Shown here in pieces: positions 2,956-51,731 of a DNA stretch of 51,731 bases; position 1 is the stretch's first letter, and the number at the start of each line of letters is the position of its first letter. The notes beneath the pieces are model-generated. The model ran no database searches. It saw nothing but the letters and a program-made list of their open reading frames with translations, and was not told where the DNA came from. The DNA lies in the IMG/VR virus record IMGVR_UViG_3300045988_035990. The stretch is one strand, 5' to 3'. The position numbers and the translations under genes were made by a program. This DNA is from a virus.

Positions 2956-3000
2956 TTTTTAACACGCATAAAGCGAAAATTTACACGGAATATTGCGTGA

Positions 3001-3012: not shown

Positions 3013-3017
3013 TTGCG

Positions 3018-3025
3018 TATCTTTG
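3018..3025 (+). promoter_or_regulatory. Bacteroides-type -7 box TATCTTTG (rightward early promoter)
   Basis: Matches TAnnTTTG. Lies between the two operator copies, facing gene 3154. Confidence 0.5.
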
Positions 3026-3047
3026 CAAACGTAAACGGAAAACATTG

Positions 3048-3055
3048 CAAAGGTA
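3048..3055 (-). promoter_or_regulatory. Bacteroides-type -7 box TACCTTTG (leftward repressor promoter)
   Basis: Plus-strand caaaggta is TAccTTTG on the minus strand, upstream of the repressor gene. Confidence 0.4.
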
Positions 3056-3096
3056 AAGCAAAAATGAACGCAAAACAATAGCAAATTTACGTCATT

Positions 3097-3108
3097 TTTC
3101 GCGAAACA
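3097..3108. promoter_or_regulatory. operator-like palindrome TTTCGCGAAA(CA), copy 2
   Basis: Identical 12-mer to 3001-3012. Confidence 0.5.
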
Positions 3109-3142
3109 CCAGCAATAACCCCGAAATATTAACAAAATAAAA

Positions 3143-3156
3143 CTTTCGCAACAATG
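3143..3156 (+). promoter_or_regulatory. CTTTCGCAACAATG start-codon motif, copy 1
   Basis: ctttcgcaacaATG, with the ATG being the start of ORF 3154. 3135-3155 is identical over 21 nt to the minus-strand copy at 29369-29349. Confidence 0.6.
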
Positions 3157-3492
3157 ATGAATTTCAACATTACAATCGTAAAGAACGATGATTTCAAGAC
3201 CGTGGGATTCCACGTTTATGCAGAAAAGAAACAAATCTTTTCTTGGGGACTTGCAAGTGATATGTATTACAACAAGAAAATCGCCGTAAATCCCGAACAC
3301 CTTGACAAGGTGATGGAACTTGTAAATATCAAAACCAAGATTGCGGGTCTTGAAGAATCAAAGCATGATTGGTTTGACATCGCAAAAGAAAATGGCGTTG
3401 CCCTAAATCGCGGTTACAAGTTCACCAAGATTGAGGAAAAGACAAACAACTTGAACAAGCGTTTGTTGAACATCATCAATTCATTCAAGTAA
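3154..3492 (+). CDS. hypothetical early protein
   Basis: 112 aa, the first gene of the rightward operon. Confidence 0.6.
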   Translation: MMNFNITIVKNDDFKTVGFHVYAEKKQIFSWGLASDMYYNKKIAVNPEHLDKVMELVNIKTKIAGLEESKHDWFDIAKENGVALNRGYKFTKIEEKTNNLNKRLLNIINSFK

Positions 3493-34933: not shown

Positions 34934-37900
34934 ATGGCAGATGTAAACGGGGGCGCATTGTCCTTTACGTCCATTATGGACAATGACCAAATGAACGCGG
35001 CGATTGAAGAAACATTGCGCCGTGTTCAAGGCTTTTCGGATGCCGTTGTTGGAAGCGGTGACACGATGGACAACACAACGCAAGAAATCGTTGAAAGCAT
35101 CCAAATCCAAAAGCGCGTCATCGAAGAATTGGAAAAGACCGTTGCGGACTTGAACGAACGCATCAATTCCGTTGAACCCGGCACGGCGCAAGATGCGTTG
35201 ATTGAACAAGCGAACGCGGCACGCGCGGAACTTGACGGGGAGAAACAAGGCATGGTTGCCTTGATTAACGAATTGAACAACTTGCAACGCGCCAATGAGG
35301 GTGCAGCATCAGCAAGTGAGGACATCCGCAACGGACTTTCCCAAATCGGCGCGGCGTGTGAAATGCACGAAAACGCGATTGCCGCCCTAAAAAAAGAATA
35401 TGAGCAAATAACCCAAACGATGAACGGCGCGTTGAAAAGCGGCAACGATAATGAATATCGTGCCTTGCGTGACCGCGCCCAAGCCATCAAGGGTGAAATC
35501 GCAACCCGCAAATCCTTGTTGAACGAGTTGCGCGAGCAATCAGACGCGCTGGAAGATGAAGCAAGCCGGATGGAACAGGCAAGGGCGGCAGCGGAAAACA
35601 CCGCACAAGCCCATGTTTCGTTGCGTCAGCAAATTCGCGCCTTGAAAGAAGAAATGGCGGATGCGGTTGCCAACGGCATTGACGAGCAATCCGAAGCATA
35701 CAAAAGGATGGTGAATGAACTTGGACGTTTACAGGACATCCAAGGCGACATCCAATCACAAGGAAGCGTTCTTGCAAACGATGAAGCGACATTTGCGGGC
35801 ATTTTGTCCGGCTTGAATGGTGTTGTTGGCGGATTCACGGCGGCACAAGGCGCGGTTGCTTTGTTTGCCGGAGAAAACGAAAATTTGCAAAAGATAATGT
35901 TGAAAGTGCAATCCCTTATGTCAATCACGATGGGATTGCAACAGGTGGCGCAAACCTTGAACAAGGATTCCGCGTTTTCCCTTATCACATTGAACAAGGC
36001 AAAGGAATGGTGGAATAACTTGTTGGCGGTCGGTCGTGGTGAACAAATCGCATCCACGGCGGCAACGGCGGCAGATACAACGGCAACCATCGCGTCCACG
36101 GCGGCAACAACCGGAAATGCGGCGGCAGAACAGGCGAGCAACACCGCAAAGACCGCAAGCGTTGGAGCATCAACGGGGGCGGCAGCAGCGCAAGCCGTAC
36201 AAACCGCATCGGCAACCGCCGGAACGGTGGCAAACATCGGACTTGCCGGAGCATTCCGCATGGTCGGCGCGGCAATCAAATCCATTCCGGTGTTCGGTTG
36301 GATTCTTGCCGGAATATCCGCGTTGATTGCGCTTGTGTCGCATTTCGTAAGCAAGGCGAACGAATCCAAGAAAGCAACCGAAGAATGGTATGATGCCATT
36401 GCGGAAAACGCTTACAAGCCCATTGCATCCATCATGGAGTTGTCCGACAATTGGAATGCACTTGGCAACGACCTTGAAGCCAAGAAACAATTCATTGAAA
36501 ACAACAAGAAAGCGTTTGAGGATTTGGGCGTTTCCGTTCGTGATGTGGTTGATGCAGAAAATGTCCTTGTTGCTAACAAAACGGCGTTCATCAATGCGCA
36601 AATCGAAAAGGCGAAAGCCACAATCTATTTGCAGCAAGCACAAGAAAAGGTCAAGGAACTAATCAAGAAAGAACAGGAATACAACGCGATGTCGGACACG
36701 AAATCCATGTGGGTTCAGACATCAACGTTCGGCACGGGTTATTGGGTGGAAACCGCCAACAATGAAAAGAAGAAAGCGAAAACCGCCCTTGATGGTTTGC
36801 GTGCGGAAATATCAAGAGGATTTCAGAACGCCGCCAACGCCGAAAGGAACGGATGGAATATCCTTAAAAAAGCCGGAATTGGTGCAACGCAAACGTACAC
36901 GAAAGGTTCACTTGGTGCGATTGAGCAAGCCATTCAGTTGAAACAAGAAGCCTTGAAACACCTTACAAATAACGATGATTACAAAAAGGCTATGGCGGAA
37001 ATTGAGAAATTGCAGAAGCAAGCCGACAAAATCACCGGAAAGACAACGACATCATCCGGGAGTGGTGGCAGCAGCAGCCATCATCGTTCATCCGGTGGAG
37101 GTGGCACGAAGAAAGATGCGTTCCTTGAAAAGCTGGCGAAATACAAAAGCGAATATTCCCGCTTTTTGAAATGGGTCAATTCCAACGACCCAATCATTCA
37201 GCAAGCGGCTAAAAAGGAATTTGGCGGGCTTTTGAAACAGGGTGCAACGTACATTGATTATTTGAAGAACCAACGCGACATCATCTTGCAAGTTGACGTT
37301 GCCAATCGTTCCAAGACGCAAAACAAGCAGTTGCGCCAACTGAATGATGCCATCGCGGAAGAAACAAAGAAAACCGTCCTTGAAGCGTTCAACAATGAAT
37401 TGTCGGATTCCCTGTCAAACGCAAAGACCGTCATAGAAATGTTGAACGTCATCGAAGCGAAGCGCAAGCAGCTTGCCAACGATGGAACGGAACTTGACAA
37501 CGCCGAAAAAGAAGCCCTTGACAATGCCGAAAAGCAAGCACAGGAAAAGGCGAAGCAACAAACGGACGCATTGTTGACCGAATACGCATCATTTGTGGAG
37601 CAGAAACGCCGCCTTGAAGAACAATTCAACGCCGACATGGAATTATTGACCCGCAAGCGCGCAAAGGCATCCACGGACGCGGAAAGGGCGGAAATCGACC
37701 AAGCAATCGCCAACCGAACAAAGAAGTACAACACGGACACAAGCAAGGTCGGCGATTATGATGCCATCTTGAACCAATATGGCGGATATGAGCAGAAAAA
37801 GGAACGCATCGCGGAACAATACGCCGAACGCCGCCGGATTGCAGAATTGAACGGCAACAAAGATTTGCTTGAAAAACTTGCAAAGGCGGAACAAGACGAA

Positions 37901-39349
37901 CTTTCCAAGTTGCAAAGCGACTTGATTAAAAATTCCGGAGATTGGCAAAACCTTTTCGGCAACCTTGACGAGTTGACAACAAAGACCATCAAGCAGCTAA
38001 TCGCCAAGATTGAGGGCATGAAAGCAACCATCGGCGTTGACTTGAATCCGCAAGACTTGAAAGCCTTGACCGACCAATTGAACAAGGCACGTTCGGAGGT
38101 TGAGAAGCGCAACCCGTTCACCACCCTTGGCGCGACGTGGAAGCGTCTAAAAGAAGCAACCAAGGATGGCAAGGGATTGGGAAGCGATGAAGCCAAGAAA
38201 GCGACCAAGGACGTTGCAACCGCCGTTTCCGGTTCGATTGACCTTATCAACGGAACATTCAACGCCGTAACGAACGGATTGCAAAAGATGGGCGTTTCGA
38301 TGGATGAAGAAACCCAAGCCATATTGGGCGACATCGGCGGCATCATGGATGGTGCAAGCCAAGTTGCGCAAGGTATCGCGACCGGAAACCCGCTTTCAGT
38401 CATTCAAGGTTCAATCGGCTTGTTGTCATCCGCCTTTGATTTGTTCAATTCGCGCGACCGCAAGGCAGAAAAGCAAATCAAGAAGCATCAAAAGGCAATC
38501 AAGCAGCTTGAAAACGCTTACAAGCAACTTGAATGGCAGATTGGCAAGGCGTTGGGCGGCGAGGTTTACAAGAACCAACAAGCAGCCATCCGCAACATGA
38601 AAGAGCAACAAGAACACTTGAAAGCATCATGGGAAGCGGAAGAAAGCAAGAAGAAAACCGACCACGACCGCGTGAATGATTTCAAGGAGCAATATGCGGA
38701 ACTTGGGCGACAAATCGAAGATATGATTGACGAAATATCCAACGACTTGTTGCAGACAACCGCAAAGGACTTTGCAAACGACTTGGGCGATGCGCTGGTT
38801 GAAGCATTCAGCAAGGGCGAAGATGCGGCAAAAGCGATGGAAACAACCGTCAATTCCGTTTTGAAAAACCTTGTCGTGAACCAATTGAAGAAGAAATTCT
38901 TGGAAAACCAATTGCAAGGCGCGTTGGATAAATTGGAAAAGGACATGGGTTATTGGAACGGCGATGATTTCGTCTTTGATGGATTGACACAAGCGGAGAT
39001 TGACCGATTCAAAAGCGCGGTCGGTGCGGCATCAAGCAATTTCAACCAAGCCTTGAAGCAATACGAAGAAATATTCAAGGACATGGGCTTGGATGATACC
39101 GATGAATCGTTGACCAGGGCGGCTAAGGGAATAAGCGAGGAATCCGCGAACATCCTTGCCGGGCAGATGAACGCCATCCGCATCAATCAGATTGACGCGA
39201 ACGAAGTCTTGCGCCAATCGTTGCAAGCATTGAATACGATTGCAATCAATACGTCATACAACAAGTATTTGTCGCGAATTGAACGCATCATCACAATATT
39301 GGAATCCAACCAAGGCGGAAACGCATTGCGTTCGCAAGGTTTGTCCTAA
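34934..39349 (+). CDS. tape measure protein
   Basis: 1471 aa, coiled-coil rich, with an Ala/Thr-rich hydrophobic central segment. Confidence 0.85.
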   Translation: MADVNGGALSFTSIMDNDQMNAAIEETLRRVQGFSDAVVGSGDTMDNTTQEIVESIQIQKRVIEELEKTVADLNERINSVEPGTAQDALIEQANAARAELDGEKQGMVALINELNNLQRANEGAASASEDIRNGLSQIGAACEMHENAIAALKKEYEQITQTMNGALKSGNDNEYRALRDRAQAIKGEIATRKSLLNELREQSDALEDEASRMEQARAAAENTAQAHVSLRQQIRALKEEMADAVANGIDEQSEAYKRMVNELGRLQDIQGDIQSQGSVLANDEATFAGILSGLNGVVGGFTAAQGAVALFAGENENLQKIMLKVQSLMSITMGLQQVAQTLNKDSAFSLITLNKAKEWWNNLLAVGRGEQIASTAATAADTTATIASTAATTGNAAAEQASNTAKTASVGASTGAAAAQAVQTASATAGTVANIGLAGAFRMVGAAIKSIPVFGWILAGISALIALVSHFVSKANESKKATEEWYDAIAENAYKPIASIMELSDNWNALGNDLEAKKQFIENNKKAFEDLGVSVRDVVDAENVLVANKTAFINAQIEKAKATIYLQQAQEKVKELIKKEQEYNAMSDTKSMWVQTSTFGTGYWVETANNEKKKAKTALDGLRAEISRGFQNAANAERNGWNILKKAGIGATQTYTKGSLGAIEQAIQLKQEALKHLTNNDDYKKAMAEIEKLQKQADKITGKTTTSSGSGGSSSHHRSSGGGGTKKDAFLEKLAKYKSEYSRFLKWVNSNDPIIQQAAKKEFGGLLKQGATYIDYLKNQRDIILQVDVANRSKTQNKQLRQLNDAIAEETKKTVLEAFNNELSDSLSNAKTVIEMLNVIEAKRKQLANDGTELDNAEKEALDNAEKQAQEKAKQQTDALLTEYASFVEQKRRLEEQFNADMELLTRKRAKASTDAERAEIDQAIANRTKKYNTDTSKVGDYDAILNQYGGYEQKKERIAEQYAERRRIAELNGNKDLLEKLAKAEQDELSKLQSDLIKNSGDWQNLFGNLDELTTKTIKQLIAKIEGMKATIGVDLNPQDLKALTDQLNKARSEVEKRNPFTTLGATWKRLKEATKDGKGLGSDEAKKATKDVATAVSGSIDLINGTFNAVTNGLQKMGVSMDEETQAILGDIGGIMDGASQVAQGIATGNPLSVIQGSIGLLSSAFDLFNSRDRKAEKQIKKHQKAIKQLENAYKQLEWQIGKALGGEVYKNQQAAIRNMKEQQEHLKASWEAEESKKKTDHDRVNDFKEQYAELGRQIEDMIDEISNDLLQTTAKDFANDLGDALVEAFSKGEDAAKAMETTVNSVLKNLVVNQLKKKFLENQLQGALDKLEKDMGYWNGDDFVFDGLTQAEIDRFKSAVGAASSNFNQALKQYEEIFKDMGLDDTDESLTRAAKGISEESANILAGQMNAIRINQIDANEVLRQSLQALNTIAINTSYNKYLSRIERIITILESNQGGNALRSQGLS

Positions 39350-39361
39350 ACTCAAAAAGAA

Positions 39362-39877
39362 ATGACAATGAACAACAAAGTAACAAAACATCTTGCCAAG
39401 GCAGCACAGGCGAACGGTATTTGCACGCCTTGGTTGAACGAGTTGAAAAGCCTTGATGACAAGGACGCGTTGGTGGATATGTACATTCGCGGCATTGATT
39501 TTTGCCTTGAACACGATTACCCATCCAACGATTTCATCCGTGAGAATTTCAAGGGCGTAATGGAGAAACACGGCGTGTTCCTTGATGATGCAATTGCATT
39601 GCAAGACCAATCCAAGTGCATTGCGCTTGGGGCGACAAATGGCAAAGTCACGGCAACCGGATATTCAGTTTCGGAAGTATGGGCAAAGCATGATTCCGCG
39701 TTGAATATCGTTGCAAAGGACAATGCCTTTGTCATGGTTGACGTGTACGACAACGCCGTTGTGAATGTCATCGCAAGCGACCGGGCGAAAGTTTGTGTGA
39801 ACCATCACGGCGGTAAAGTGATACATAAAGCCACGGGCGATGCCGTGGTGAAAATCCGGGAGAAGTCAAACAAGTAA
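39362..39877 (+). CDS. hypothetical tail-module protein
   Basis: 171 aa. Confidence 0.55.
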   Translation: MTMNNKVTKHLAKAAQANGICTPWLNELKSLDDKDALVDMYIRGIDFCLEHDYPSNDFIRENFKGVMEKHGVFLDDAIALQDQSKCIALGATNGKVTATGYSVSEVWAKHDSALNIVAKDNAFVMVDVYDNAVVNVIASDRAKVCVNHHGGKVIHKATGDAVVKIREKSNK

Positions 39878-39889
39878 ATTGAACCATTT

Positions 39890-41095
39890 ATGGACAACAA
39901 AAATATTATCTTTCAAATGCCATTCGATGAAAGCGATGGCGCGCTTGTCGCTTATGACTATTCATCGAACCGCGCCGATGGCGTTGTGTCCGGTGCGCAT
40001 TTCGTTCAAGGAAAGAATGGCAACGCCATTTCCTTTTCCGGCGATGATACTTGCGAGGTTGACAAAAGCGTATTGCCCACCCTTTCCGTTGACTTTTCAA
40101 TGTTGATGTGGGTGAATGGTGCGGAATGCGAGGTTGGCACGCCAACACAATTGATTTGGATGCTTGCTTTCGCCGGGCTTGACAATTACGTTGAAGTTCC
40201 CATCGAAGCGAAATCCGGAACTTGGTTTTCGCTTGCGCTGGTTAAACAGGGCGTAAAATATCGCTTTTATGTCAATTCATCATTGATTAAGGAGGTGACG
40301 AACGGCGGCACGCTGCAAGGCGTATCGCTTAACCAAGACCATTATGGCGGCGATTATGGCTTTGGCTTGCTGGATGATGTCAAGATGTACAATCTTGCAT
40401 TGTCACAACAAGACTTAATTTCGGAAATATCATCCGCCAAACAACAGGCATACACCATTGACGGACACGATTTCAAGGATTATGGAATCTATGTGTCGGC
40501 ATCCGATGGCTTGTTGTCGCGTCCGAAACTGAAAGACCCGTTGACGGTCAATTGGGACAACTATCATGGCGAAAGCGTGGATTTGATGCACAAGTTCATT
40601 GAAGCGCGCGACATCACGTTGTCTTGCTTTGTCAAGGCAGAATCAAAGATTGATTTCATCAAGCGCGTGAACGACTTTGCGCATCTATTCGACAAAAAAG
40701 GAACGAATCGCCTTGTCGTTGACGTGCATCCGGTGAAACCTTTGATTTACGAAGTTTACATCAAGGATGAAATCGAAGTTTCAAAGACTTGGAACGATTC
40801 GTTGATGGTCGGCACGTTCAAGTTGAAGTTGCGCGAACCCGAACCCGTCAAAAAGGTGTTGAAGCATATCCGTGTAAGCGAAGCGACAAAGACTTGCGAA
40901 ATCACCTTGACATCAACCAAGTATGTGAACATATATTGGGGCGATGGCAATGTTGATTATGACATCGCGGGCAAGGATGTGTCAGTACAACACGAATACA
41001 CCGAAAACGGCGATTATTTCCCCGTTGTCACGGGTTGCATTGATGAAATCACATCATTCACCACAAACGCCATTATCGTATGGGAGCGAATATAA
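39890..41095 (+). CDS. distal tail protein (Dit-like) with an N-terminal LamG/concanavalin-like domain
   Basis: N-terminal ...VSGAHFVQGKNGNAISFSGDD...FSMLMWVNG...YRFYVNSSL (LamG pattern). Position after the tape measure gene. Confidence 0.55.
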   Translation: MDNKNIIFQMPFDESDGALVAYDYSSNRADGVVSGAHFVQGKNGNAISFSGDDTCEVDKSVLPTLSVDFSMLMWVNGAECEVGTPTQLIWMLAFAGLDNYVEVPIEAKSGTWFSLALVKQGVKYRFYVNSSLIKEVTNGGTLQGVSLNQDHYGGDYGFGLLDDVKMYNLALSQQDLISEISSAKQQAYTIDGHDFKDYGIYVSASDGLLSRPKLKDPLTVNWDNYHGESVDLMHKFIEARDITLSCFVKAESKIDFIKRVNDFAHLFDKKGTNRLVVDVHPVKPLIYEVYIKDEIEVSKTWNDSLMVGTFKLKLREPEPVKKVLKHIRVSEATKTCEITLTSTKYVNIYWGDGNVDYDIAGKDVSVQHEYTENGDYFPVVTGCIDEITSFTTNAIIVWERI

Positions 41096-44000
41096 TTATC
41101 ACAAAACCGAATGGAAGCCGTGTGCCTATGGAATCAAGGGCAACGGCAACCGCCATCACCGCCGCAAAGCAGACTTGGGCGTTGAATGCAGAAGATACAA
41201 TTGCCATCACGGTTGTTTCCCCATTCCCGCAATCATACGGGATTGGGGACGTGATAACCGTGTTCGGGCGTGACTATCGTTTGAACCGCTTGCCAAAGGT
41301 CAGCAAAACAGGAATGCAAGAATACCAATATGATTTGGAGTTTGAGGGCATCCAATACGACCTTATGCGCGTGACGTATGACGTGAACATCAACACCACG
41401 AACAACCAATTACAGGATATCCAAGGCGATTCCTTGACGGGTGACTTGAAAAGGTTCATGGAGGTGTTGATAAGTAACGCAAACCGCGTATTCCCCGGCA
41501 AATGGGCGTTGGGAGTATGCCCGGAAACGGATGGCGACAATACTTTGACGTTTTCGGAATCAGACAATTGCTTGTCGGTGCTGCAAACCTTGTGTTCGGA
41601 AGATAAGTTTGGCGTTGAATTTGAGATTGAACGCGTCAACGGCGTTTATGTCATCAACATCAAAAAGACCATCGGACAAACCTTGCCTTTCGTGCTGGAG
41701 TACGGCAAGGGCAAGGGCTTATATTCCATTTCGCGTGAAAACGTTTCATCCTCAAACATCGTCACACGATTAAAGGTGTACGGAAGCACGGAAAACATCA
41801 CGTCAAAATATCGCGCCGACCGCCTTTGTATGTTTGGCAAGGACAAGGCATCATCTTACATCGAAAAGGCGGATGCCGTGGCGAAATACGGCATCTTTGA
41901 GGGTCGCAAGAATTTCGACATCAAGCCGACATTCACGGGCAAGGTCTCATCCGTTGTTGATGGCGATGTGTTGTCATTCATTGACACGTCATTTCCATTC
42001 GACATCAACGCAAAGAACGCATCCGGCGAAACCCTGTATTTGATTTCCGGGGTGTCCGCCAAGGTGCATTTCAATTCCGGAAACCTTGCCGGATATGAAT
42101 TTGAGGTTCACGCATACGACCACGCGACACGAAAGTTCACGTTGGTAAAGCAAACCGATGACCGGGGAAACGTGTTCCCATCTGAAACATCGCCCGCGTT
42201 CCAAATCGGCAAAAACGACACATACAAGGTGCTTGACATCGCTTATTCGCGTGACATCGAAGAAGCAGCAGAAAAGAAGCTGGCGGAAGAGGGCAACAAG
42301 TATTATGACCAAAATTCACAACCAAAGGTTCAATATTCGGTGAACGTGACAAAGGCGTTTATCGAAAACAAACTTGCGTTGTCGGATGGCATCACGAATG
42401 TATTTGCGCCGGGCGATTATTTGCCAATCAAGGATGATGAAATTGGCGTTGACAAGTCAATCCGCATCAAGTCATTCACGCGCAACGTGCTTGACCCATA
42501 CGATTATTCGTTGACCATTTCGGACACACAAACAAAGGGCGACATCACAACGCGCGTGATTTCCGACCTTGTGGACATTGACAAGGTGTTGACCATCAAC
42601 AACCTAAAAGACCCGGCACAGGCGCGCGCAAATTGGCGTTCATCGCGTGAAGTCTTGAACATGGTGTTCGACCCGGAAACGGGCGGTTATTACAAGGACA
42701 AAATCACGCCGGAATCCGTGGACACAATGATGTTGTCAGTTGGCGCGAAGTCAATGCAATTCGGCTTGATAAACACCGTCTTTGAACCGAACTTTAATGG
42801 AAACCCGAACTTGTTCAAGTGGAAAGGTGGCGTTCTTACACATTACACCATTGACCCCGACAAGGCGCGTTCGTGGGTGCTGGCGGATGGAACAACGGCA
42901 TTGCAACAGGATGTGCCATATTACATCTATGCAGTTTGCAACCGCGACAATTCAGCCGGAACAATGAGCATTTCGGCAACACAACACAAGGTTGAAGAAT
43001 TGCCGAACGTGTATTTCTTTCTGATTGGAATCTTGGGAAGTATTGACGCGGACACAAAGGTTCGTGCCATTTCCTTGACGTATGGTTTCACGACCATCAA
43101 CGGACGATTCATCAAGACCGGACGCATCGAATCGGCGGATGGTACAACATATTTCGACCTTGACCAATCCGAAATTGGCGGGCGAATCGTGTTCACGCAA
43201 AACGGGCAAGAAAAAACGCTTGAAGAACTTGGCAGCGAAGCAATGGAAAGCAAGGATTTCATCAACAACACATTGCCCGGAATCCTTGACGAAATCAAAG
43301 CGCAATTGGATGGTCAGATTGAACAACATTTCTATCAGATAGACCCATCCCCGCTTTCAACCGCGCCGGGTTCGGAAGCTGGTGTTCCGAATAGTGGATG
43401 GACGGATGCCAACACGAAAGAAAACCATCTTGGCGACCTGTATTATAACACGACATCCGGCAAGGTTTGGCGATATGTGAAGATTTCATGGCGACCAAAG
43501 CCGGGATATGCGCCCGGCACATTCTATGTGTGGCAAGAACTGCAAGATTCAGAACTTGCGCAAGCCATCGCGATTGCAAATGAAGCGTTGGAACTTGGCA
43601 AGGAAAAGAACCGCATCTTTACATCAACGCCCGTGACACCTTATGATGTCGGCGACTTGTGGGTTCAAGGTGCGACCGGGGACATCATGCGTTGTAAAAC
43701 GGCAAGGGAATCAGGCGCGTTCACATCATCGGATTGGGAAAGGGCAAGCAAATACACGGATGATTCCGCGTTGAAGAATTTCATCAACGGCGACTTTGCC
43801 AATGCCATTGACACGATGACCGAACAAATTGACGGAAAAATTGAAACGTGGTTTCAGACATCCGACCCGGCATCCAATTGGACAACGGACGCGGAAAAAG
43901 CCAAGCACGTTGGCGATATGTGGTACAATTCAAGCACAAAGTCGTTGAGTTGCTATCGTAAAACATTCCGCTTCGTCAATGGTACGGCAACGGTTGTCTA

Positions 44001-45129
44001 TGTTTGGCGAACAATCGAAGATAAAAAGGCGATTGATGCGTATGATGCAGCAAGCAAGGCACAGGACACCGCCGATGGCAAACGCCGTGTGTTCGTTGCG
44101 CAACCTTATCCACCTTATGATGTCGGCGACTTGTGGGTTGACGGGAAAGAATTGCGCCGTTGCATCACCGCAAGGGCATCCGGTTCGTGGAACACAAATG
44201 ATTGGGTTGTTGCCGTTTATTACGACAACACACAAACAACGATTGATGGCGGAATCGTCACATCCGGAACAATACAGGTTGCGGGCGACAACAAATCCAT
44301 CCTTGCCGGAATCACGGGAAACGGCACGGCATCCGATTCCATCCGCTTTTGGGCTGGAGCGTCATTCGAGAATCGCAAGACCGCGCCTTTCCGCGTCATG
44401 CAAGATGGTTCGGTTGTGATGTCAAAAGCGCAAGTGGAGGGCGTAATAAATGCAATAACGGGTTCAATCGGCGGTTTCCGAATCCAACAAGGTCAAATCG
44501 GATATGGTGGTTCAGACGAACAGGATGCGACAAATGGATTGGCGTTACTCCGTGATTTCATAAGGTTTAACAACGACAAACAATGTGTGTTGCTTGGTTG
44601 CCTGTCATCGCTTGGTTATCCTGTTAATGGTTTTTTGTCATTGACCGACAAAATGGGCACAACGCTTGAATTGCACCACGACAACCCATCAACGAGTGAT
44701 GCAAATAATGAACATTGGTATCATCCAAAAGCCCTTGGTGTATATGGCAATCAATACAATATTGGAAAAGTTGCGGCATTTGAAAATGGGTACATCGGGC
44801 AAGCGTACACGGACATTATAGAATTATGGTTCGGCATTACGCAAAAGTATCATTTCACCGCTAACACGACTAAATATTTGAATGTAAAGTTGCCAACATT
44901 GGCACAGGTGAACAATCAGACAAACAATGTCCCAACAATTTTTGACATCGAAATTGTGTGTGACCGAAACATGGGAAACCGAATAAGAGTTTCACCGCAA
45001 AGCGGATGCACGTTATACAACAACGATGGAAAATCTATTAGTGGAATTGACATGGAGCGTGGCGATTCATTGACGTTGCGTTATTACAATGGTGGATGGA
45101 TGGTTGTTAATAAACAATATACAACATAA
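41080..45129 (+). CDS. tail-associated / tail fibre protein (Tal-like N-terminus, large C-terminal fibre)
   Basis: 1349 aa. Contains an internal 160-aa tandem module (HxGDxxYN...PYDVGDLWV...RC.TAR.SG..DW twice). Confidence 0.7.
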   Translation: MGANIIITKPNGSRVPMESRATATAITAAKQTWALNAEDTIAITVVSPFPQSYGIGDVITVFGRDYRLNRLPKVSKTGMQEYQYDLEFEGIQYDLMRVTYDVNINTTNNQLQDIQGDSLTGDLKRFMEVLISNANRVFPGKWALGVCPETDGDNTLTFSESDNCLSVLQTLCSEDKFGVEFEIERVNGVYVINIKKTIGQTLPFVLEYGKGKGLYSISRENVSSSNIVTRLKVYGSTENITSKYRADRLCMFGKDKASSYIEKADAVAKYGIFEGRKNFDIKPTFTGKVSSVVDGDVLSFIDTSFPFDINAKNASGETLYLISGVSAKVHFNSGNLAGYEFEVHAYDHATRKFTLVKQTDDRGNVFPSETSPAFQIGKNDTYKVLDIAYSRDIEEAAEKKLAEEGNKYYDQNSQPKVQYSVNVTKAFIENKLALSDGITNVFAPGDYLPIKDDEIGVDKSIRIKSFTRNVLDPYDYSLTISDTQTKGDITTRVISDLVDIDKVLTINNLKDPAQARANWRSSREVLNMVFDPETGGYYKDKITPESVDTMMLSVGAKSMQFGLINTVFEPNFNGNPNLFKWKGGVLTHYTIDPDKARSWVLADGTTALQQDVPYYIYAVCNRDNSAGTMSISATQHKVEELPNVYFFLIGILGSIDADTKVRAISLTYGFTTINGRFIKTGRIESADGTTYFDLDQSEIGGRIVFTQNGQEKTLEELGSEAMESKDFINNTLPGILDEIKAQLDGQIEQHFYQIDPSPLSTAPGSEAGVPNSGWTDANTKENHLGDLYYNTTSGKVWRYVKISWRPKPGYAPGTFYVWQELQDSELAQAIAIANEALELGKEKNRIFTSTPVTPYDVGDLWVQGATGDIMRCKTARESGAFTSSDWERASKYTDDSALKNFINGDFANAIDTMTEQIDGKIETWFQTSDPASNWTTDAEKAKHVGDMWYNSSTKSLSCYRKTFRFVNGTATVVYVWRTIEDKKAIDAYDAASKAQDTADGKRRVFVAQPYPPYDVGDLWVDGKELRRCITARASGSWNTNDWVVAVYYDNTQTTIDGGIVTSGTIQVAGDNKSILAGITGNGTASDSIRFWAGASFENRKTAPFRVMQDGSVVMSKAQVEGVINAITGSIGGFRIQQGQIGYGGSDEQDATNGLALLRDFIRFNNDKQCVLLGCLSSLGYPVNGFLSLTDKMGTTLELHHDNPSTSDANNEHWYHPKALGVYGNQYNIGKVAAFENGYIGQAYTDIIELWFGITQKYHFTANTTKYLNVKLPTLAQVNNQTNNVPTIFDIEIVCDRNMGNRIRVSPQSGCTLYNNDGKSISGIDMERGDSLTLRYYNGGWMVVNKQYTT

Positions 45130-45130
45130 T

Positions 45131-45376
45131 ATGGAATATCAATTGGCAAAATACGTTCAAGGTGAACCCCTTGACTTGCGCCGGGTTGACAAAAGCCAAG
45201 GCGCGTATATTACGGAATTGAGAAATGCGGGGTTTCTTGATTTTGTGCCAAGCGAGCAGCCAACGGGCGAACCGGGAACGTCCGTGGTTGAATCGCTTGA
45301 TGTGGTGGATGGAAAGCTGGTGCAATCGTGGCGTGTCGTTGAAGATGCGCCACAAGAAACCGCATTGCCGGGCTAA
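45131..45376 (+). CDS. hypothetical protein
   Basis: 81 aa from the ATG at 45131. Confidence 0.45.
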   Translation: MEYQLAKYVQGEPLDLRRVDKSQGAYITELRNAGFLDFVPSEQPTGEPGTSVVESLDVVDGKLVQSWRVVEDAPQETALPG

Positions 45377-45399
45377 GTTGTGCCTAACTTATCCACAAC

Positions 45400-45432
45400 G
45401 TGTTTCACTATAAAACATATATTGTAAATTTG
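45400..45432 (+). promoter_or_regulatory. palindromic motif (copy c) plus -7 box TAAATTTG
   Basis: gtgtttcactataaaacat at 45400-45418 and taaatttg at 45425-45432, upstream of the DGR and lysis block. Confidence 0.55.
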
Positions 45433-45463
45433 CATTCAAGTTTTTAACGTAAAAAATTGAAGT

Positions 45464-45733
45464 ATGAACACAAGAAGCGGCGAAAGCGTTTCCGCGCAAA
45501 TCGGAAAGATGGGCGTGATTGACCTTGCGAACGGCAATTTCAGCCTTTCGGACGGTCAACCGTTCAACATCAAGAACGATTCTACAAGCCCCGTCAAATT
45601 GTCGGTGCAGCTTGCCGGAATGGATGATGGGGATTTCATCGAAACCAACTTTGAAAGTGGTTGGAATCCCGAAATCGTGAAAGTAATCAAGGCAACATCG
45701 TTGTCGGGTATAAACTTAAAATGGGGCTACTAA
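45464..45733 (+). CDS. hypothetical protein upstream of the DGR target
   Basis: 89 aa. Confidence 0.5.
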   Translation: MNTRSGESVSAQIGKMGVIDLANGNFSLSDGQPFNIKNDSTSPVKLSVQLAGMDDGDFIETNFESGWNPEIVKVIKATSLSGINLKWGY

Positions 45734-45734
45734 T

Positions 45735-47051
45735 ATGGGACTTTTAATCGGTGTCGGCAACACAAAGCCGACCTTTCCTTATGATTATTATTATGGCGTG
45801 GAATGGGACATCACGGTGTCCAATCCCAAGCCAACACGCGTTGGCAAGATGGAGTTGCACAAGGAATTGCCATTGCAAAACATGATGCGCAATTGCATCT
45901 TGGATGACAACGGCAAGGTTGTGTATTACCTTAACGCCAACGATTCGACAAAGCGCGACACAGGCGCGGCGGCAGACTTGACGGGCAAGGATGGCATGAT
46001 GGAAACGGAATTGCCGGATATGTACGTTCGTTTTGAAATGGATGGCAACAAATGTCGCCATTTGCAGAGTACACAACCATTGCCCGGATTCCATCTTTGG
46101 CGCAAAGGCTATGTTTCAAGCGTTGAAGCAACGGTTCAACGTTCAACAAACAAGCTGGCATCCGTTTGTTCAACCGATGTTGATTATCGTGGAGGCAATA
46201 ACAACGCAAGTTATGATGGAACGTATCGTTCATTCCTTGGCTTGCCCGCAACATCCATTTCATTGAATGATTTCCGCGCAAAGGCGCGCAATCGTGGTTC
46301 GGTGGAATGGAACGCGAATCTTTACAGGATGCACAAGATGTTGTGGTGGTTGTTCGTGGTTGAATATTGCACATTCAACACGCAAGACAAGTTCAATGCG
46401 GAACTTGACGAAAACGGATTCCATCAAGGCGGATTGGGTGATGGTGTTACAACATGGGATTGGGGTTCATGGTCAACGCACAATGGAAACAATCCAATCA
46501 TTCCATGTGGTGTTACAAATGCGCTTGGCAACCATTCGGGAACGGTTGACTATTCCGTTCATGGCGAAGATGATGCAGTAAAGAAAACATTCGCCGTGCC
46601 GCGTTATCGTGGTATTGAAAACCCATTCGGTCACATTTGGAAGTGGACGGACGGAATCAAGATAATCATCCAAAGCGAAGCGGCGGGCGGTTTATCCAAG
46701 ATGTACATTTGCTATGACCCATCCAAGTTCACAAATTCGGGTGTCGGCAATTATGAGTATCGCGGCGACATTTCGCGAAAAGAGGGATATGTAAAACAAC
46801 TTGTCCTTGGCGAAGATGGCGACATTATGCCGTTGGCGGTAGGTGCTGGAAGTACAACGTTCTTTTGCGACTACTTTTATACAAACATCCCGGCATCCGG
46901 AGAATCGGAACGTGGTGTTTTGTTCGGCGGTAATGCGAGGAATGGTGCGTATGCGGGGTTCGTGTGCGCGGTGACGAATGACGCGCCTACGGATGCGAGT
47001 GCGCATTTCGGTTCTCGGCTTTGCTTTGACCCGCAAATCGAAGCGGCTTGA
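45735..47051 (+). CDS. DGR target protein 1 (C-type lectin / FGE-like C-terminus carrying VR1)
   Basis: 438 aa ending ...GVLFGGNARNGAYAGFVCAVTNDAPTDASAHFGSRLCF. Confidence 0.85.
   Translation: MGLLIGVGNTKPTFPYDYYYGVEWDITVSNPKPTRVGKMELHKELPLQNMMRNCILDDNGKVVYYLNANDSTKRDTGAAADLTGKDGMMETELPDMYVRFEMDGNKCRHLQSTQPLPGFHLWRKGYVSSVEATVQRSTNKLASVCSTDVDYRGGNNNASYDGTYRSFLGLPATSISLNDFRAKARNRGSVEWNANLYRMHKMLWWLFVVEYCTFNTQDKFNAELDENGFHQGGLGDGVTTWDWGSWSTHNGNNPIIPCGVTNALGNHSGTVDYSVHGEDDAVKKTFAVPRYRGIENPFGHIWKWTDGIKIIIQSEAAGGLSKMYICYDPSKFTNSGVGNYEYRGDISRKEGYVKQLVLGEDGDIMPLAVGAGSTTFFCDYFYTNIPASGESERGVLFGGNARNGAYAGFVCAVTNDAPTDASAHFGSRLCFDPQIEAA
46911..47026 (+). repeat. DGR variable repeat 1 (VR1)
   Basis: 116-nt ungapped alignment to TR 47123-47238. 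There are 16 mismatches, 14 at TR adenines and 2 at TR thymines. Confidence 0.9.
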
Positions 47052-47059
47052 AAAGCCGT
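47043..47059 (+). other. hairpin downstream of VR1 (candidate DGR target-recognition structure)
   Basis: cggct(t)-gaa-(a)agccg stem-loop, 17 nt after the end of VR1, overlapping the stop codon. Confidence 0.4.
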
Positions 47060-47122
47060 AAATCGACCCGCAAACCGATAAACGGGATTTGAAAGAAAAA
47101 AGAAATAATGGTTGTCCGATGT

Positions 47123-47238
47123 CGTGGTGTTTTGTTCAGCGGTAATGCGAATAATGGTGCGAATGCGGGGTTCGTGTACGCGAATACGAATAACACGCCT
47201 ACGAATGCGAATGCGAATATCGGTTCTCAGCTATGCTT
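47123..47238 (+). repeat. DGR template repeat (TR)
   Basis: Rich in AAT/AAC codons: aat aat ggt gcg aat ... aat acg aat aac acg cct acg aat gcg aat gcg aat atc. Confidence 0.9.
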
Positions 47239-47403
47239 GTAAAATAATATAGTTGCTAATCGGAAACCATGCCAATCATCCCATCCGGGGATGGTAAGTC
47301 GGGAAAGGAAGCCCGGCGGCAAAAAATAGAATATGTTGAACGGTTTTGGTAGGGCGCAAGCCCGAAGAATCCTATTATTCAAGCAAACAAGAAACTTTCA
47401 AGA
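47239..47403 (+). ncRNA. DGR spacer RNA region between TR and RT
   Basis: Non-coding 165 nt with hairpins ccatcc/ggatgg, cggg..cccg and gggc-gcaa-gccc (GNRA loop). Confidence 0.5.
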
Positions 47404-48501
47404 ATGAAAAGAATTGGCAACCTTTATGAAAAGGTCATCGCGATTGATAACTTGAAACTTGCGGACGAAAAAGCCCGCAAGGGCAAGTTGCATTCCTATG
47501 GCGTGCAGCAGCACGACAAGAACAGGGAAGCGAACATTCTTGCATTGCATGAAAGTTTGAAAAACGGAACTTTCAAGACATCCCAATATCACGTTTTCAC
47601 AATTTTTGAACCAAAGGAACGGCAAATCTATCAATTGCCATATTATCCCGACCGCATCTTGCATCATGCGGTGATGAACATTCTTGAACCAATATGGGTG
47701 TCCGTGTTCACGCACGACACATATTCATGTATCAAGGAACGCGGCATTCATGCGTGCGCCATGAGCGTGAAAAAGGCTTTGAGAAAAGACCCGGTCGGCA
47801 CGAAATATTGCTTGAAGATTGACGTTCGCAAGTTTTACCCATCAATCAACCACGAAGTGTTGAAAGGTGTGGTAAGGCGGAAAATAAAAGATGGTCGCCT
47901 TTTGGCGTTGCTGGATGAAATCATTGATTCCAACATCAACACGGACATTCCGATTCGGGATTTTGTCACCGACCCAAACACCGGGGAATTGGTGGCAACG
48001 TCCTTGAACGGCGTGCCGATTGGCAACTATCTTTCCCAATACTTTGCGAACCTTTTCTTGGCGTATTTCGACCATTGGTTGAAAGAAGAAAAGCGCGTGA
48101 AGTATTATTGGCGTTATGCCGATGACATCGTTGTTCTTGCACCGGACAAGGAATCCTTGCACGCGTTGTTGCGTGACATACGGGCATACATGAAGCGTTT
48201 GCAACTGAAAGTGAAACGCAACCATCAAGTGTTCCCGGTTGACGCGCGCGGAATTGATTTCCTTGGATTCGTGTTCTATCACGACCACACATTATTGCGC
48301 AAGTCAATAAAACAAAATCTTTGCCGCCGGGTGGCGAAGTTGAACAAGCGCAAGAAACAACCCACAAAGGCAGCTTACAAGCAAGCCATTTGCAGTTGGT
48401 GGGGTTGGTGCAAGTATTCGGATTCAATTCATTTATTCGACAAACTTTCAAAATCGTTTCCTTATGAAATTAAATTCAATCGAACCAAACGCGCATTATG
48501 A
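47404..48501 (+). CDS. DGR reverse transcriptase
   Basis: RYADDIVVL (YxDD) and GVPIGNYLSQYFANLFL, which is the [LIV]GxxxSQ motif characteristic of DGR RTs. Confidence 0.9.
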   Translation: MKRIGNLYEKVIAIDNLKLADEKARKGKLHSYGVQQHDKNREANILALHESLKNGTFKTSQYHVFTIFEPKERQIYQLPYYPDRILHHAVMNILEPIWVSVFTHDTYSCIKERGIHACAMSVKKALRKDPVGTKYCLKIDVRKFYPSINHEVLKGVVRRKIKDGRLLALLDEIIDSNINTDIPIRDFVTDPNTGELVATSLNGVPIGNYLSQYFANLFLAYFDHWLKEEKRVKYYWRYADDIVVLAPDKESLHALLRDIRAYMKRLQLKVKRNHQVFPVDARGIDFLGFVFYHDHTLLRKSIKQNLCRRVAKLNKRKKQPTKAAYKQAICSWWGWCKYSDSIHLFDKLSKSFPYEIKFNRTKRAL

Positions 48502-48853
48502 CATTGCGCATGGTATGCCCGCCGTGCTGGAAAAGGACAATGACGGGTCGGTGATTTATCGCGTGAACATCGCCGAAGAAAAAGCCATTCCGGAGGGTGA
48601 AAAGGAAGCCCGCCCGATTGGTTGGTCATGTTATGAAGTGCGCACGTTCGCAAAGCCTACAAAGGCAAACTTGAAGCGTGTATTCATCCGTTCAGTCATT
48701 GACGAAACGGCGGAATTTGACCTTGTAAATTCGTACAACAAGCACGTCATTGGCATTGCGCCGGATGAAAAGGCGGTTGCCGAATACAAGGAATATTTGA
48801 AGTTTACCGAAGATTTGGACAACCAAATCATTTCGGATTTGTCACACATCTAA
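48464..48853 (+). CDS. hypothetical protein overlapping the RT 3' end
   Basis: 129 aa, with no resemblance to Avd four-helix-bundle proteins that I can see. Confidence 0.5.
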   Translation: MKLNSIEPNAHYDIAHGMPAVLEKDNDGSVIYRVNIAEEKAIPEGEKEARPIGWSCYEVRTFAKPTKANLKRVFIRSVIDETAEFDLVNSYNKHVIGIAPDEKAVAEYKEYLKFTEDLDNQIISDLSHI

Positions 48854-48863
48854 AAAGAAGAAA

Positions 48864-49268
48864 ATGCCACGATTTAGCGATTCTAACATTGAATCGGACG
48901 CAATAATTGGTAAGGGAATAGACCTTGAAGAACTTTTTGACCGCCGCATTGTCATTGAGAAAATCAAGATTGTACCAACCAAGTTTCCGGGAAAGAATGC
49001 GTCCGGTATGCGTATGCAAGTTGTCATCAATGCCGAATTTATGGACACGCCCGATTCGGACGGCGACTTTTTCAAAAAGGATGCCAACGGAAAGGCAATT
49101 GGAACGCGGCGTTCCGTGTTCACCGGGAGCGACAATTTGATGTCGGAAATGAAGCAAGTGCAATCGCAATGGAAAACCGAACGCGTTTCCCAAGGGTTGC
49201 CCGCCGTTGATTTCGTTGTGTTTGATACGACAATCGCGAAAGTTGGCAAAATGTTTCATTTTACATGA
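48864..49268 (+). CDS. hypothetical protein
   Basis: 134 aa. Confidence 0.5.
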   Translation: MPRFSDSNIESDAIIGKGIDLEELFDRRIVIEKIKIVPTKFPGKNASGMRMQVVINAEFMDTPDSDGDFFKKDANGKAIGTRRSVFTGSDNLMSEMKQVQSQWKTERVSQGLPAVDFVVFDTTIAKVGKMFHFT

Positions 49269-49278
49269 TTTTACGATT

Positions 49279-49887
49279 ATGACATCAAACATTCATTCAA
49301 CAATAGTTCCTATCTTGGCAAGATACATGATGACCGCATTCGGCGCGTGTTTCGCCATCATCAAGCCGACATTCCCGTTCATCTTTGTGTGTACGCTTGC
49401 GGTGCTTGCTGATTGTTACACCGCATGGTCGTTGAGCCGGAGAGTGAAGAAACGTTTTCCCGGTGCGAATGATGGAAAGTTCAAATCCCATTATGCCGGG
49501 CGCGTGTTCCGAACACTTATCAAGGTGTATGCCTTGACCGTCCTTGTTCACTTGATGGACGTGATGGTGTTCCCGGAAGTGTCTTTGCATTTGCCGCAAA
49601 TTGTAGCCGGGTCAGTATGCTTTTGGCAAGTGTGGTCAATGCTGGAAAACGAATCGTCTTGCAATGATGCGAAATGGGCAATCATCGCCCAACGCATCAT
49701 GGTTGACAAGACCGAACGCCATTTTGACATTGACTTGCATGAGTTGAAAGAACACAAACCAACGCCGCCGATGGATGGCGTGCCGTGTGCCAATACATTT
49801 TGCGTGTTCCGTGGTGGCGGTTCTTGCGACCCGCCAAAGTGTGAATTGTATGTAAAACCAAAAACAAACGATAATGGCGGACATTAA
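49279..49887 (+). CDS. holin (LL-H / holin_4_1-like) with a Cys-rich C-terminal tail
   Basis: Three or more TM helices and [18 protein letters not shown] at 49279. Confidence 0.65.
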
Positions 49888-50449
49888 GAATTTGATTCCG
49901 TTCATCCTCAAATGGGAGGGCGGATTTGCGAACGACCCGACCGACCGGGGCGGCGCAACCAACAAAGGCGTGACAATCGCGACTTATGAAGCGTATTGCA
50001 AGAAGGAAGGTTTGCCCCGTCCATCGGTGGCGGACTTGAAACACATTTCGGATGCCCATTGGCGTGACATCATCAAGACGATGTTTTGGGATAAATGGCG
50101 CGCCGATGACATCCATTCCCAAAAGGTCGCAAACATCCTTGTTGATTGGGTTTGGGCATCCGGCATTCACGGCATCAAGAAACCACAAGCATTGCTTGGC
50201 GTTGTCGCGGATGGTATCGTTGGCAACAAAACATTGTCGGCGGTCAACTTTGCCGACCCCGACCAACTTTTTGAAGCCATATTCAAAGAACGCGTGAAGT
50301 TCATCAATGGGATTGTTTCGCGTTCCGTTGTGGCATACGAAAAGAAGATTGGGCGCAAGGCAACTGAAAAGGAGTTGTTGAAGTACACACAAAAGCGGTT
50401 CTTGTCCGGATGGATGAACCGATTGAACGACATCAAAAAGTTGCGATGA
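49874..50449 (+). CDS. endolysin, glycoside hydrolase family 108 with a PG-binding domain
   Basis: [24 protein letters not shown] (EGG...DxxDxGGxTxxG). Confidence 0.8.
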
Positions 50450-50450
50450 T

Positions 50451-51017
50451 ATGAAACAGGCATTGAAATTCATCGCGCTTTGTCTTGTCGCGTTACTGAT
50501 TGCCGCGTGTTCGACATCGCGCAAGCTGGAGAAGAACACCGACAAGGTTGTTGCGGATAGTGTGTCGGAAAGCATTTCCAAGGTCGCGGATGTTTCCAAG
50601 GTCGTTGACACGACCAAGACCGAATCCGGGGAATCCATCATCACGGAAATAATCTTTTTCGGAGATTCAGCGCGCGCGCCGGATTTGCCCGAACTGATTA
50701 TTGACAAGGACGGAAAGATGACCATCAAGGGCGGAAAGGGCGTGAAAAGCATCAAGCAAACCGCCATCCGGTCAAACGTGGTGAAGAATGGAAAGACAAC
50801 GGAAAAGGAACGCAACACCACGACCAAGGACAAAGCGACCGTCCACAAGGAGAAGAAACACAACGAAGTTGCAAAGACAAGCAGACGTTCAAATGTATGG
50901 ACGTGGGCAATCGCCGCATCAATCGTTGCCGTTCCTGTCTTGTTCATGCGGTACAGAAAGCCAATATTGGCATGGTTGCGCAAGTTGCTTGCATCCATGC
51001 GCAAGGATTTGGAATAA
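50451..51017 (+). CDS. unimolecular spanin-like lipoprotein
   Basis: Lipobox LIAAC at the N-terminus and a C-terminal TM helix WTWAIAASIVAVPVLFM. Confidence 0.55.
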   Translation: MKQALKFIALCLVALLIAACSTSRKLEKNTDKVVADSVSESISKVADVSKVVDTTKTESGESIITEIIFFGDSARAPDLPELIIDKDGKMTIKGGKGVKSIKQTAIRSNVVKNGKTTEKERNTTTKDKATVHKEKKHNEVAKTSRRSNVWTWAIAASIVAVPVLFMRYRKPILAWLRKLLASMRKDLE

Positions 51018-51023
51018 ATTTTG

Positions 51024-51031
51024 TATCTTTG
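51024..51031 (+). promoter_or_regulatory. -7 box TATCTTTG after the last lysis gene
   Basis: Matches TAnnTTTG, 7 nt after the spanin stop codon. Confidence 0.35.
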
Positions 51032-51036
51032 CATCA

Positions 51037-51050
51037 CATTGTTGCGAAAG
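51037..51050 (-). promoter_or_regulatory. CTTTCGCAACAATG motif, copy 7 (minus strand, ATG followed directly by TGA)
   Basis: The minus strand reads ggggctttcgcaacaATGtga. On the plus strand it is the exact complement of the motif found at the start codons. Confidence 0.5.
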
Positions 51051-51078
51051 CCCCTTGCATCGCACGGGGAACAATGTT

Positions 51079-51111
51079 GAAGCCCGGTTCATCGCCGGGC
51101 TTCTTTCGTTT
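51079..51111 (+). terminator. rho-independent terminator of the lysis operon
   Basis: gaagcccgg-ttcatcg-ccgggcttc followed by tttcgttt. Confidence 0.75.
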
Positions 51112-51213
51112 GGTATGTACACGGATTTTCTTGTTTTTGGACAATCGGGTAGGAGGTAAATGCTAATCATAAAAGGCATTTACCTCCTATTTTCACATTT
51201 ACCGACCTCCCAC

Positions 51214-51245
51214 ACCACCGTACGTGCGGTTCCGCATACGGCGGT
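51214..51245 (-). ncRNA. group II intron domain V
   Basis: ACCGCCGUAUGCG-GAAC-CGCACGUACGGUGGU. The stem has the canonical 2-nt AC bulge and a CGC catalytic triad as in IIC introns. Confidence 0.8.
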
Positions 51246-51692
51246 TTCGTGCTTTCTCATCTTGCGATGTGTGGCAAGTTGTTTTCAGCTATCCCTATGA
51301 GTAGCGTCACTTCTATCCTATTGTCGGATTCCGTCCTATCGTCCTGGATAGAGAGTTCCTTTCGGACATCTGACGAGGTGTCTCACAAGGTAACATTCAT
51401 TTACTATTGCACTGCACGATTCAGTCCTTCCCTATAAGCACACGTGCCTTGGGTACTATGACCTCTGCTGACTTCTCACGGCAAGCTTTACTCCATGGCT
51501 TTCGTAAGCAACTAATCGTCATGTCCGTGAGACCTCCTCGGATAAGGGCTTATTCTTTCCATCTTATACCCACTTCATTTACACCAACCATTCCGAATAG
51601 CTATAGGACTTTGATTTGTTTGGCAATCTCATCCATGGTCAAATGCCTTATATGAAGTTTCTGTACGTTAGGTCAGATGTTTGCCGCCAGCT

Positions 51693-51731
51693 TCTTTCAG
51701 ATTCCACCTCGCAGTGGACACCCTTGCTATT
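51693..51731. repeat. terminal direct repeat, copy 2 of 2
   Basis: Identical to 1-39. Confidence 0.95.

Follow-up and report, generated by a model that had tools for sequence, protein, structure and literature searches.

Class C (IIC) group II introns of bacteria insert after terminators, and the rare ORF-less introns of bacteria usually accompany related copies that encode an intron-encoded protein (IEP) (Zimmerly & Semper, PMC4424553). In phages, group II introns were found in 20 of 29,015 curated genomes (0.07%) and in ~9,229 IMG/VR genomes; six of these phage introns are ORF-less, one IIC copy lies after a terminator, and trans-mobilization by a co-resident reverse transcriptase (RT) has been proposed for them (Merk, Jones & Eddy, NAR 2025, PMC12350094). 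HYERs, as the work of Liu et al. (Science 2024) is described in PMC11754743 and PMC12990946, are ORF-less multi-copy IIC introns with hydrolytic DNA and RNA cleavage. The element described here fits squarely within these three descriptions, of phage group II introns, of ORF-less IIC introns and of HYERs. Its initial annotation overstated the novelty of the locus, since the 2025 survey (PMC12350094) had already described phage group II introns, among them ORF-less examples and an IIC copy behind a terminator.

The window, i.e., the whole stretch of 51,731 nt that was analyzed, is a circular contig whose first and last 39 bases are identical. Positions 51693-51731 duplicate window 1-39 (intron nt 73-111) and are no biological repeat, the true length being 51,692 bp. 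With the overlap removed, the intron is 660 nt long; on the minus strand it runs from 111 to 1 and continues from 51692 to 51144. Its nt 1-111, the 5′ part of domain I (D1) with covarying helices, occupy window 1-111, with the 5′ splice site GUAUG at 111-107; nt 112-660, comprising the remainder of D1 and D2-D6, occupy 51144-51692 on the minus strand, as delimited by Rfam matches, empty sites and the consensus structure. Both ends, GUAUGC at the 5′ side and CCCGAU at the 3′ side, agree with the group II consensus (5′ GUGYG-like, 3′ AY). The initial annotation had proposed an intron of about 655 nt that ends near 51149; the location was right, and the length and the 3′ end are each corrected by 5 nt. 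The contig presumably ends inside the intron because the assembler broke at a multi-copy element or repeat, and many of the related loci likewise have contig ends inside the intron.

Three Rfam families match the minus strand above their gathering scores: RF02001 (group-II-D1D4-3) at 51718-51547 with 142.3 bits and an E-value of 1.5e-29, RF01998 (group-II-D1D4-1) at 51494-51424 with 45.1 bits, and RF00029 (Intron_gpII, D5-D6) at 51246-51144 with 50.4 bits. The 5′ end of a IIC D1 has no dedicated Rfam model, and an Rfam E-value scan of window 1-450 for this part of D1 yielded nothing beyond the truncated RF02001 match and sRNA matches due to chance. ORFs on the intron strand do not exceed 33 aa anywhere inside the element. 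Judged by its sequence, the element is a complete ORF-less IIC group II intron with six domains, and the proposal of such an intron across the window junction is borne out by the three Rfam families together with exact empty sites. A counter-case named in the initial annotation, that covariance models would give no significant match, is removed by these Rfam scores.

These empty sites were found with a gapped search pattern in which the terminator is followed by the downstream flank. Four viral contigs (L033-L036) lack exactly the 660 nt and read ...TTTCGGGCGTTTTTTTG joined directly to TGTCCAAAAAC... (also as ...TTTCGGGCGTTTTTTTG joined to TGTCCAAAAACAAG...), which fixes the 5′ boundary between 112 and 111 and the 3′ splice site after the U at 51144 on the minus strand. 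Since a shift of the boundary by one base in either direction fails to reproduce the empty-site sequence, the intron extends exactly from 111 to 51144. One of the four, the 50,780-bp contig L034, is 94.8% identical to the window across 13.8 kb and has position 51143 joined straight to 112. Because the flanks join exactly in these intron-less relatives, the two junctions at either end of the window represent one insertion at one site. The existence of intron-less siblings shows that the phage acquired a host retroelement recently. A search for the filled junction gave 0 matches in IMG/VR; the insertion therefore looks recent or rare, and for the element it may prove a dead end.

The intron sits behind a hairpin that resembles an intrinsic terminator (112-149, minus strand). 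Its 12-bp stem runs from 149 to 116, and a U7 run at 119-113 lies partly in the 3′ strand, where four of its bases complete the last four pairs of the stem. With the insertion point 4 nt past the hairpin, the original observation that GUAUGC directly follows a hairpin and U7 is confirmed. RNAfold predicts a folding energy of −15.5 kcal/mol for the hairpin (z −4.55); it was used in place of a simple terminator scan, which missed the hairpin because its loop is 10 nt long. IBS1 (UUUG, 115-112, minus strand) pairs with EBS1 (CAAA, intron nt 182-185, window 51619-51622, minus strand), which is presented in the loop of the hairpin GAUUGC-CAAA-CAAAUC and is supported by covariation. The first nucleotide of the 3′ exon, a U at 51143 on the minus strand, corresponds to IBS3 and is a T at 42 of 46 distinct sites. 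From the small size of D1 (~262 nt), the absence of an EBS2-IBS2 pairing is only suggested.

The hairpin had been described as the terminator of the integrase gene. This label does not hold: the tyrosine integrase gene (390-1664, minus strand; Pfam PF13102 and PF00589), although transcribed towards the intron, stops ~240 nt upstream of the hairpin, and an attP-like region (156-381, minus strand) lies in between. Three GTACACGAAAAT repeats at 156-167, 341-352 and 370-381 surround the attP-like core, a 16-mer (TCCCTCTCTCTCCGCA, 216-201) that matches the 3′ end of a tRNA-Ser(TGA) gene from Prevotella (L131) without a mismatch. ARAGORN detected no tRNA gene in the window, and the tRNA-like sequence is a 3′-end fragment only, consistent with an att core. 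After integration, the hairpin with its U7 run and the intron would adjoin the rebuilt tRNA-Ser gene, directly behind it; L131 carries an IEP-bearing intron in just such a place behind tRNA-Ser. The insertion is intergenic, has the same orientation as the integrase gene and interrupts no gene, and no splicing is needed for phage viability. Approximately 45 nt past the 3′ end of the intron, a perfect 9-bp G+C-rich hairpin (GAAGCCCGG...CCGGGCUUC, 51076-51100) is followed by a T-rich run on the plus strand and is probably the terminator of the convergent plus-strand gene at 50451-51017. A megablast search of window 36000-51143 against the INPHARED phages gave no match.

Domain and model searches revealed no group II IEP gene in the phage. 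The sole RT of the window (47404-48501) has an RVT_1 domain, lacks a maturase domain and reaches 121 bits on the group II RT/maturase model, compared to a cutoff of 300; as it also adjoins a TR/VR pair, its earlier identification as a DGR RT, and as the only RT, was correct. This DGR extends over 45735-48501 on the plus strand, with the VR (46911-47026) at the 3′ end of the ORF at 45735-47051, the TR at 47123-47238 and then the RT; 14 of 16 mismatches between TR and VR fall on TR adenines. We considered the DGR RT as the mobilizing enzyme of the intron and set it aside, given the missing maturase domain and the score below the group II model cutoff.

Alignment of 56 distinct ORF-less copies (alignment A1) gave an RNAalifold consensus of 174 pairs arranged as a six-domain wheel, and compensatory changes occur at 34 of these pairs. 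In this consensus, D1 spans intron nt 6-267. D2 (nt 268-334, window 51470-51536, minus strand) is of variant 'A', which is common to the IEP-bearing siblings L001 and L018, and is followed by J2/3 (AGCAGA, 51469-51464, minus strand) and by D3 (nt 341-381, window 51423-51463, minus strand), whose type is specific to the ORF-less lineage. In most family members the terminal loop of D3 contains the palindrome CACGUG (51446-51441, minus strand), which in one sub-lineage is replaced by GACACGGGUUGUC. D4 (nt 385-557, window 51247-51419, minus strand) is a structured, non-coding remnant; the initial annotation had correctly stated that it encodes no IEP, and its size, given there as ~190 nt, is about 173-177 nt. 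The assignment of D5 (nt 559-590) to window 51245-51214 on the minus strand, with a GAAC loop, a 2-nt AC bulge and a CGC triad, proved exact in the RF00029 alignment and in the fold: it reads A-CCGCCGUAUGCG-GAAC-CGC-AC-GUACGGUGG, the triad being CGC rather than AGC, and shows a compensatory change from G-C to C-G in 18 of the 56 copies. D6 (nt 592-658, window 51146-51212, minus strand) forms an extended hairpin with a bulged adenosine at window 51150, the putative branch point, which is invariant among the 56 copies. An optional insertion of ~22 nt in domain I (GGAGUUUCCUUGAGCUUAGCGAAA, A1 columns 226-247) is present in L087, L222, L241, L243, L264 and L265. The window copy has zero deviations at family positions that are conserved to at least 90% and for this reason looks intact.

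Relatives were gathered by scanning collections of viruses, genomes and metagenomes with sequence patterns, and all counts are lower bounds. We found at least 58 full-length ORF-less relatives of 82-99% identity at about 55 distinct flanks or sites, and the lineage occupies at least 53 distinct sites in human-gut metagenomes, in Prevotella/Bacteroidales genomes and in other phages. Named hosts among the matches listed are Prevotella and other Bacteroidales MAGs or isolates; one 1.76-Mb Prevotella contig holds at least three distinct copies (L134, L145, L187), and viral contigs hold at least five distinct sites. Among the matches listed, the copy closest to that of the window, L231, is 99.2% identical (three substitutions and a 2-nt indel) and lies at an unrelated site. 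A D5 pattern scan of genome contigs was too general, matching IIC introns of many phyla.

Of 53 distinct sites, 50 have an upstream stretch (45 nt) that folds at −10 kcal/mol or below; the mean is −19.5 kcal/mol, compared to −7.5 kcal/mol for random 45-mers. T makes up 65% of the tail, and the median distance from the hairpin to the start of the intron is 5 nt. Across 46 distinct sites, on average 3.52 of the four EBS1/IBS1 positions are paired compared to 2.80 ± 0.10 after permutation, a value reached in 0 of 10,000 permutations. EBS1 itself varies within the loop GC[NNNN]CA, where AAGA faces UCUU at 12 sites and CAAA faces UUUG at ten. This use of EBS1/IBS1 and EBS3/IBS3 is how IIC introns recognize their targets. 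Such retargeting across sites shows that it is the ORF-less form that has moved, and repeatedly.

Several loci deviate from the common arrangement. In L211 and L223, the 5′ end of a second intron lies within 1-2 nt downstream of an ORF-less copy, and in L244 an ORF-less copy lies directly after domain VI of an IEP-bearing intron, where the D6 hairpin seems to serve as the insertion target. L077 (Phocaeicola coprocola DSM 17136, ~7867-7180, minus strand) is an independent ORF-deletion derivative with the same D3 type and a different D4 remnant that retains the first ~25 IEP codons; ORF loss has therefore happened more than once. L002 (MT836950.1, ~2990-3460) is a decayed ORF-less copy with 77% identity, a 5′ deletion and no recognizable D5-D6, and it is still located behind a hairpin.

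The initial annotation had proposed a search of host genomes for IIC introns with ORFs and matching ribozymes, and such introns do exist. They are ~1.93 kb long, up to 97% identical to the window copy over nt 1-350 (D1-D2) and up to 94% over nt 558-660 (D5-D6), and diverge in D3-D4, where they encode a protein of 468 aa. Carriers are L011, L018, L028, L032 and L001 as well as L037, L093 and L131 in Prevotella genomes. The protein contains RVT_1 and GIIM domains, lacks an endonuclease domain and reaches 419 bits with the equivalog model for group II RT/maturases (TIGR04416). Among solved structures it matches IIC enzymes best, namely 7UIM (3e-121), the GsI-IIC RT (5e-116) and 5HHJ/5HHL, compared to 1e-47 for the IIA protein LtrA and 9e-36 in a further IIA/IIB comparison; by these scores it is a probable class-C-type RT/maturase. 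The siblings also follow hairpins, with matching EBS1. ORF-less and IEP-bearing copies share one contig in L244, L243, L275 and L180, once in direct tandem; these cases of co-residence come from relatives.

The window intron is a mosaic, with a 5′ segment of 350 nt that is 97% identical to the IEP-bearing L001 and a remainder that belongs to the ORF-less lineage. Of the three D2 variants in the family, two are common to IEP-bearing siblings, and D1-D2 of the window copy are of the L001/L018 type; within IMG/VR, the ORF-less D3 type was found in ORF-less copies only. As D3 is thus private to the ORF-less copies and D2 variants are common to the siblings, these sequence comparisons mark the family as a non-autonomous lineage of its own, in which 5′ segments are exchanged with IEP-bearing partners.

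The 5′ region of D4 is the primary IEP-binding site in characterized group II introns. ORF-less D4 retains ~100 nt homologous to the 5′ end of D4 in the IEP-bearing siblings, a stretch that runs across the former start codon and about 25 codons, and an identical 17-mer (GAUAGGACGGAAUCCGA, window 51340-51324) occurs in both. Mean pairwise identity among the ORF-less copies is 0.867 for D4 and 0.887 for D1; 51% of the columns are invariant in D4 compared to 38% in D1, and D4 contains five covarying pairs (RNAalifold, 56 copies). We infer that the D4 remnant is a candidate IEP-binding site.

In our view, the element is very probably an intact ORF-less IIC intron that acts as a non-autonomous retroelement and is mobilized in trans. 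Its RNA would fold into a six-domain ribozyme and recognize a single-stranded, terminator-like DNA hairpin, with four upstream bases pairing with EBS1 and one downstream base with EBS3, and the intron would then reverse-splice in right after the hairpin. An RT/maturase that the intron does not encode would copy it into DNA. This enzyme would come in trans from the ~1.93-kb IEP-encoding IIC siblings in the same Prevotella/Bacteroidales hosts, and the ORF-less RNA would offer it the retained 5′ part of the sibling D4, the usual IEP anchor. A supply in trans, which the initial annotation had regarded as necessary, is plausible because Prevotella genomes contain IEP-encoding siblings, and some contigs carry such siblings together with ORF-less copies. 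By this route, the window copy would have entered the phage recently, behind the hairpin and U7 run downstream of the integrase gene and attP. Catalysis, trans-mobilization by a sibling IEP, the role of D4 in IEP binding and read-through expression are all predicted from sequence.

An alternative, which we consider unlikely, is that the ORF-less RNA works as a protein-free hydrolytic endonucleolytic ribozyme of the HYER type, and that it was spread or kept for cleavage of RNA or single-stranded DNA, with its short recognition site as the guide, not driven by an IEP. As an ORF-less, multi-copy IIC element of ~0.6 kb, it corresponds to the published HYERs as described in PMC11754743 and PMC12990946, and its lineage has a D3 of its own that, within IMG/VR, is confined to ORF-less copies. 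Moreover, the D3 loop carries a palindrome, and HYER1 dimerizes via a D3 palindrome according to the description in PMC12990946. HYERs are ORF-less IIC introns with protein-free activities, and dependence on an IEP is hence a likely rather than a proven trait. However, the palindrome is absent from the GACACGGGUUGUC sub-lineage, and the invariant bulged A together with an intact D6 points to a lariat and to reverse splicing beyond hydrolysis alone. The 5′ segment of the sibling D4 has been retained under constraint, IEP-bearing siblings lie on the same contigs, and new DNA copies need a reverse transcriptase. The two readings are not mutually exclusive, and the conserved branch site, D4 and the co-resident IEPs favor retromobility in trans.

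It is far less probable that the element is a passive relic, left behind when a single deletion event in the phage or its host removed the ORF of an IEP-encoding intron, and is now immobile and decaying. IEP-less introns have generally lost retromobility (2015 review, PMC4424553), and ORF loss recurs in this family, as seen in the independent derivative L077 and in L002, which has decayed and lacks D5-D6. Yet the same ORF-less architecture recurs at 82-99% identity at at least 53 sites, whose flanks show that they are not duplications of a single locus; EBS1 has been retargeted to new sites, and D4 is conserved with covariation. The window copy shows no private substitution at conserved positions, and its 99.2% identical counterpart, L231, occupies another site. 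That the contig was falsely circularized or is chimeric through a host intron repeat, the counter-case already named in the initial annotation, has in its favor that the 39-bp circularizing overlap lies inside a multi-copy intron and that the intron is a mosaic (5′ 350 nt L001-like, remainder of the ORF-less lineage), but it is hardly credible given that four independent relatives without the intron carry its two flanks as one continuous stretch, joined exactly at the intron ends, and that the same mosaic recurs at 99.2% identity in the separate assembly of L231, the empty sites and this copy together excluding a chimera.

Beyond mobilization of an intact intron in trans, a broader picture can be drawn, which we offer as a speculation with rather little probability: the lineage could be a SINE-like parasite of autonomous IIC introns, with its own D3-D4 module, recombination with its partners, transfer among Prevotella strains by temperate phages, read-through behind tRNA-Ser in the lysogen and possibly an added HYER-type activity. 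If this were true, a protein-free ribozyme that cleaves DNA or RNA could benefit the phage or the element, e.g., against terminator-like single-stranded DNA of competing replicons.

Trans-mobilized or not, the intron explains an otherwise unannotated structured region of 660 nt and the contig ends within it. Current views are not overturned; the analysis adds the documentation of an empty site, the extent and activity of a Prevotella-associated ORF-less lineage, the identification of its partners and the place beside a phage attP. This natural lineage is abundant in human-gut Prevotella, is apparently active there and has RT/maturase partners that can be identified. It could thus serve as a convenient system for the trans-mobilization of non-autonomous group II introns and their phage-borne spread, and it offers compact Bacteroidota IIC ribozymes as HYER-like candidates.

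Compared with the bacterial IIC introns O.i.I1 of Oceanobacillus iheyensis, B.h.I1, GsI-IIC and the Eubacterium rectale IIC intron, the window element shares the small six-domain ribozyme with a CGC triad in D5, the insertion a few nt after intrinsic-terminator hairpins and the short EBS1/IBS1 and EBS3/IBS3 pairings. Its siblings encode an endonuclease-less RT/maturase that is closest to the solved IIC RTs. In contrast to these introns, the window element has no IEP ORF, its D4 is a 173-nt structured non-coding remnant, its D6 bears a long extra hairpin, and the hosts of its lineage are Bacteroidota (Prevotella) and their phages instead of Firmicutes. Relative to the phage introns surveyed in PMC12350094, the window copy resides in an uncultured temperate phage of Prevotella type, next to attP, its empty site is documented, and the ORF-less lineage to which it belongs is large, is actively transposing and has identified partners that bear an IEP.

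The likeness to HYERs, compared here by their descriptions in PMC11754743 and PMC12990946 only, lies in the ORF-less IIC architecture of ~0.6 kb (637 nt in HYER1), the multiple copies per genome, the short target-recognition site and the D3 loop palindrome as in dimeric HYER1. Unlike HYERs, the family of the window is known from sequence alone, keeps the branch-point A and an IEP-type D4 remnant, and co-occurs with IEP-bearing siblings. It also resembles ORF-less introns that are mobilized or spliced in trans, such as the cyanobacterial case in PMC4424553, where non-autonomous copies likewise exist beside the trans-acting IEP of autonomous relatives. Whereas cases of the cyanobacterial type are IIB/CL introns within a single genome, the IIC lineage described here spans many human-gut strains, species and phages.
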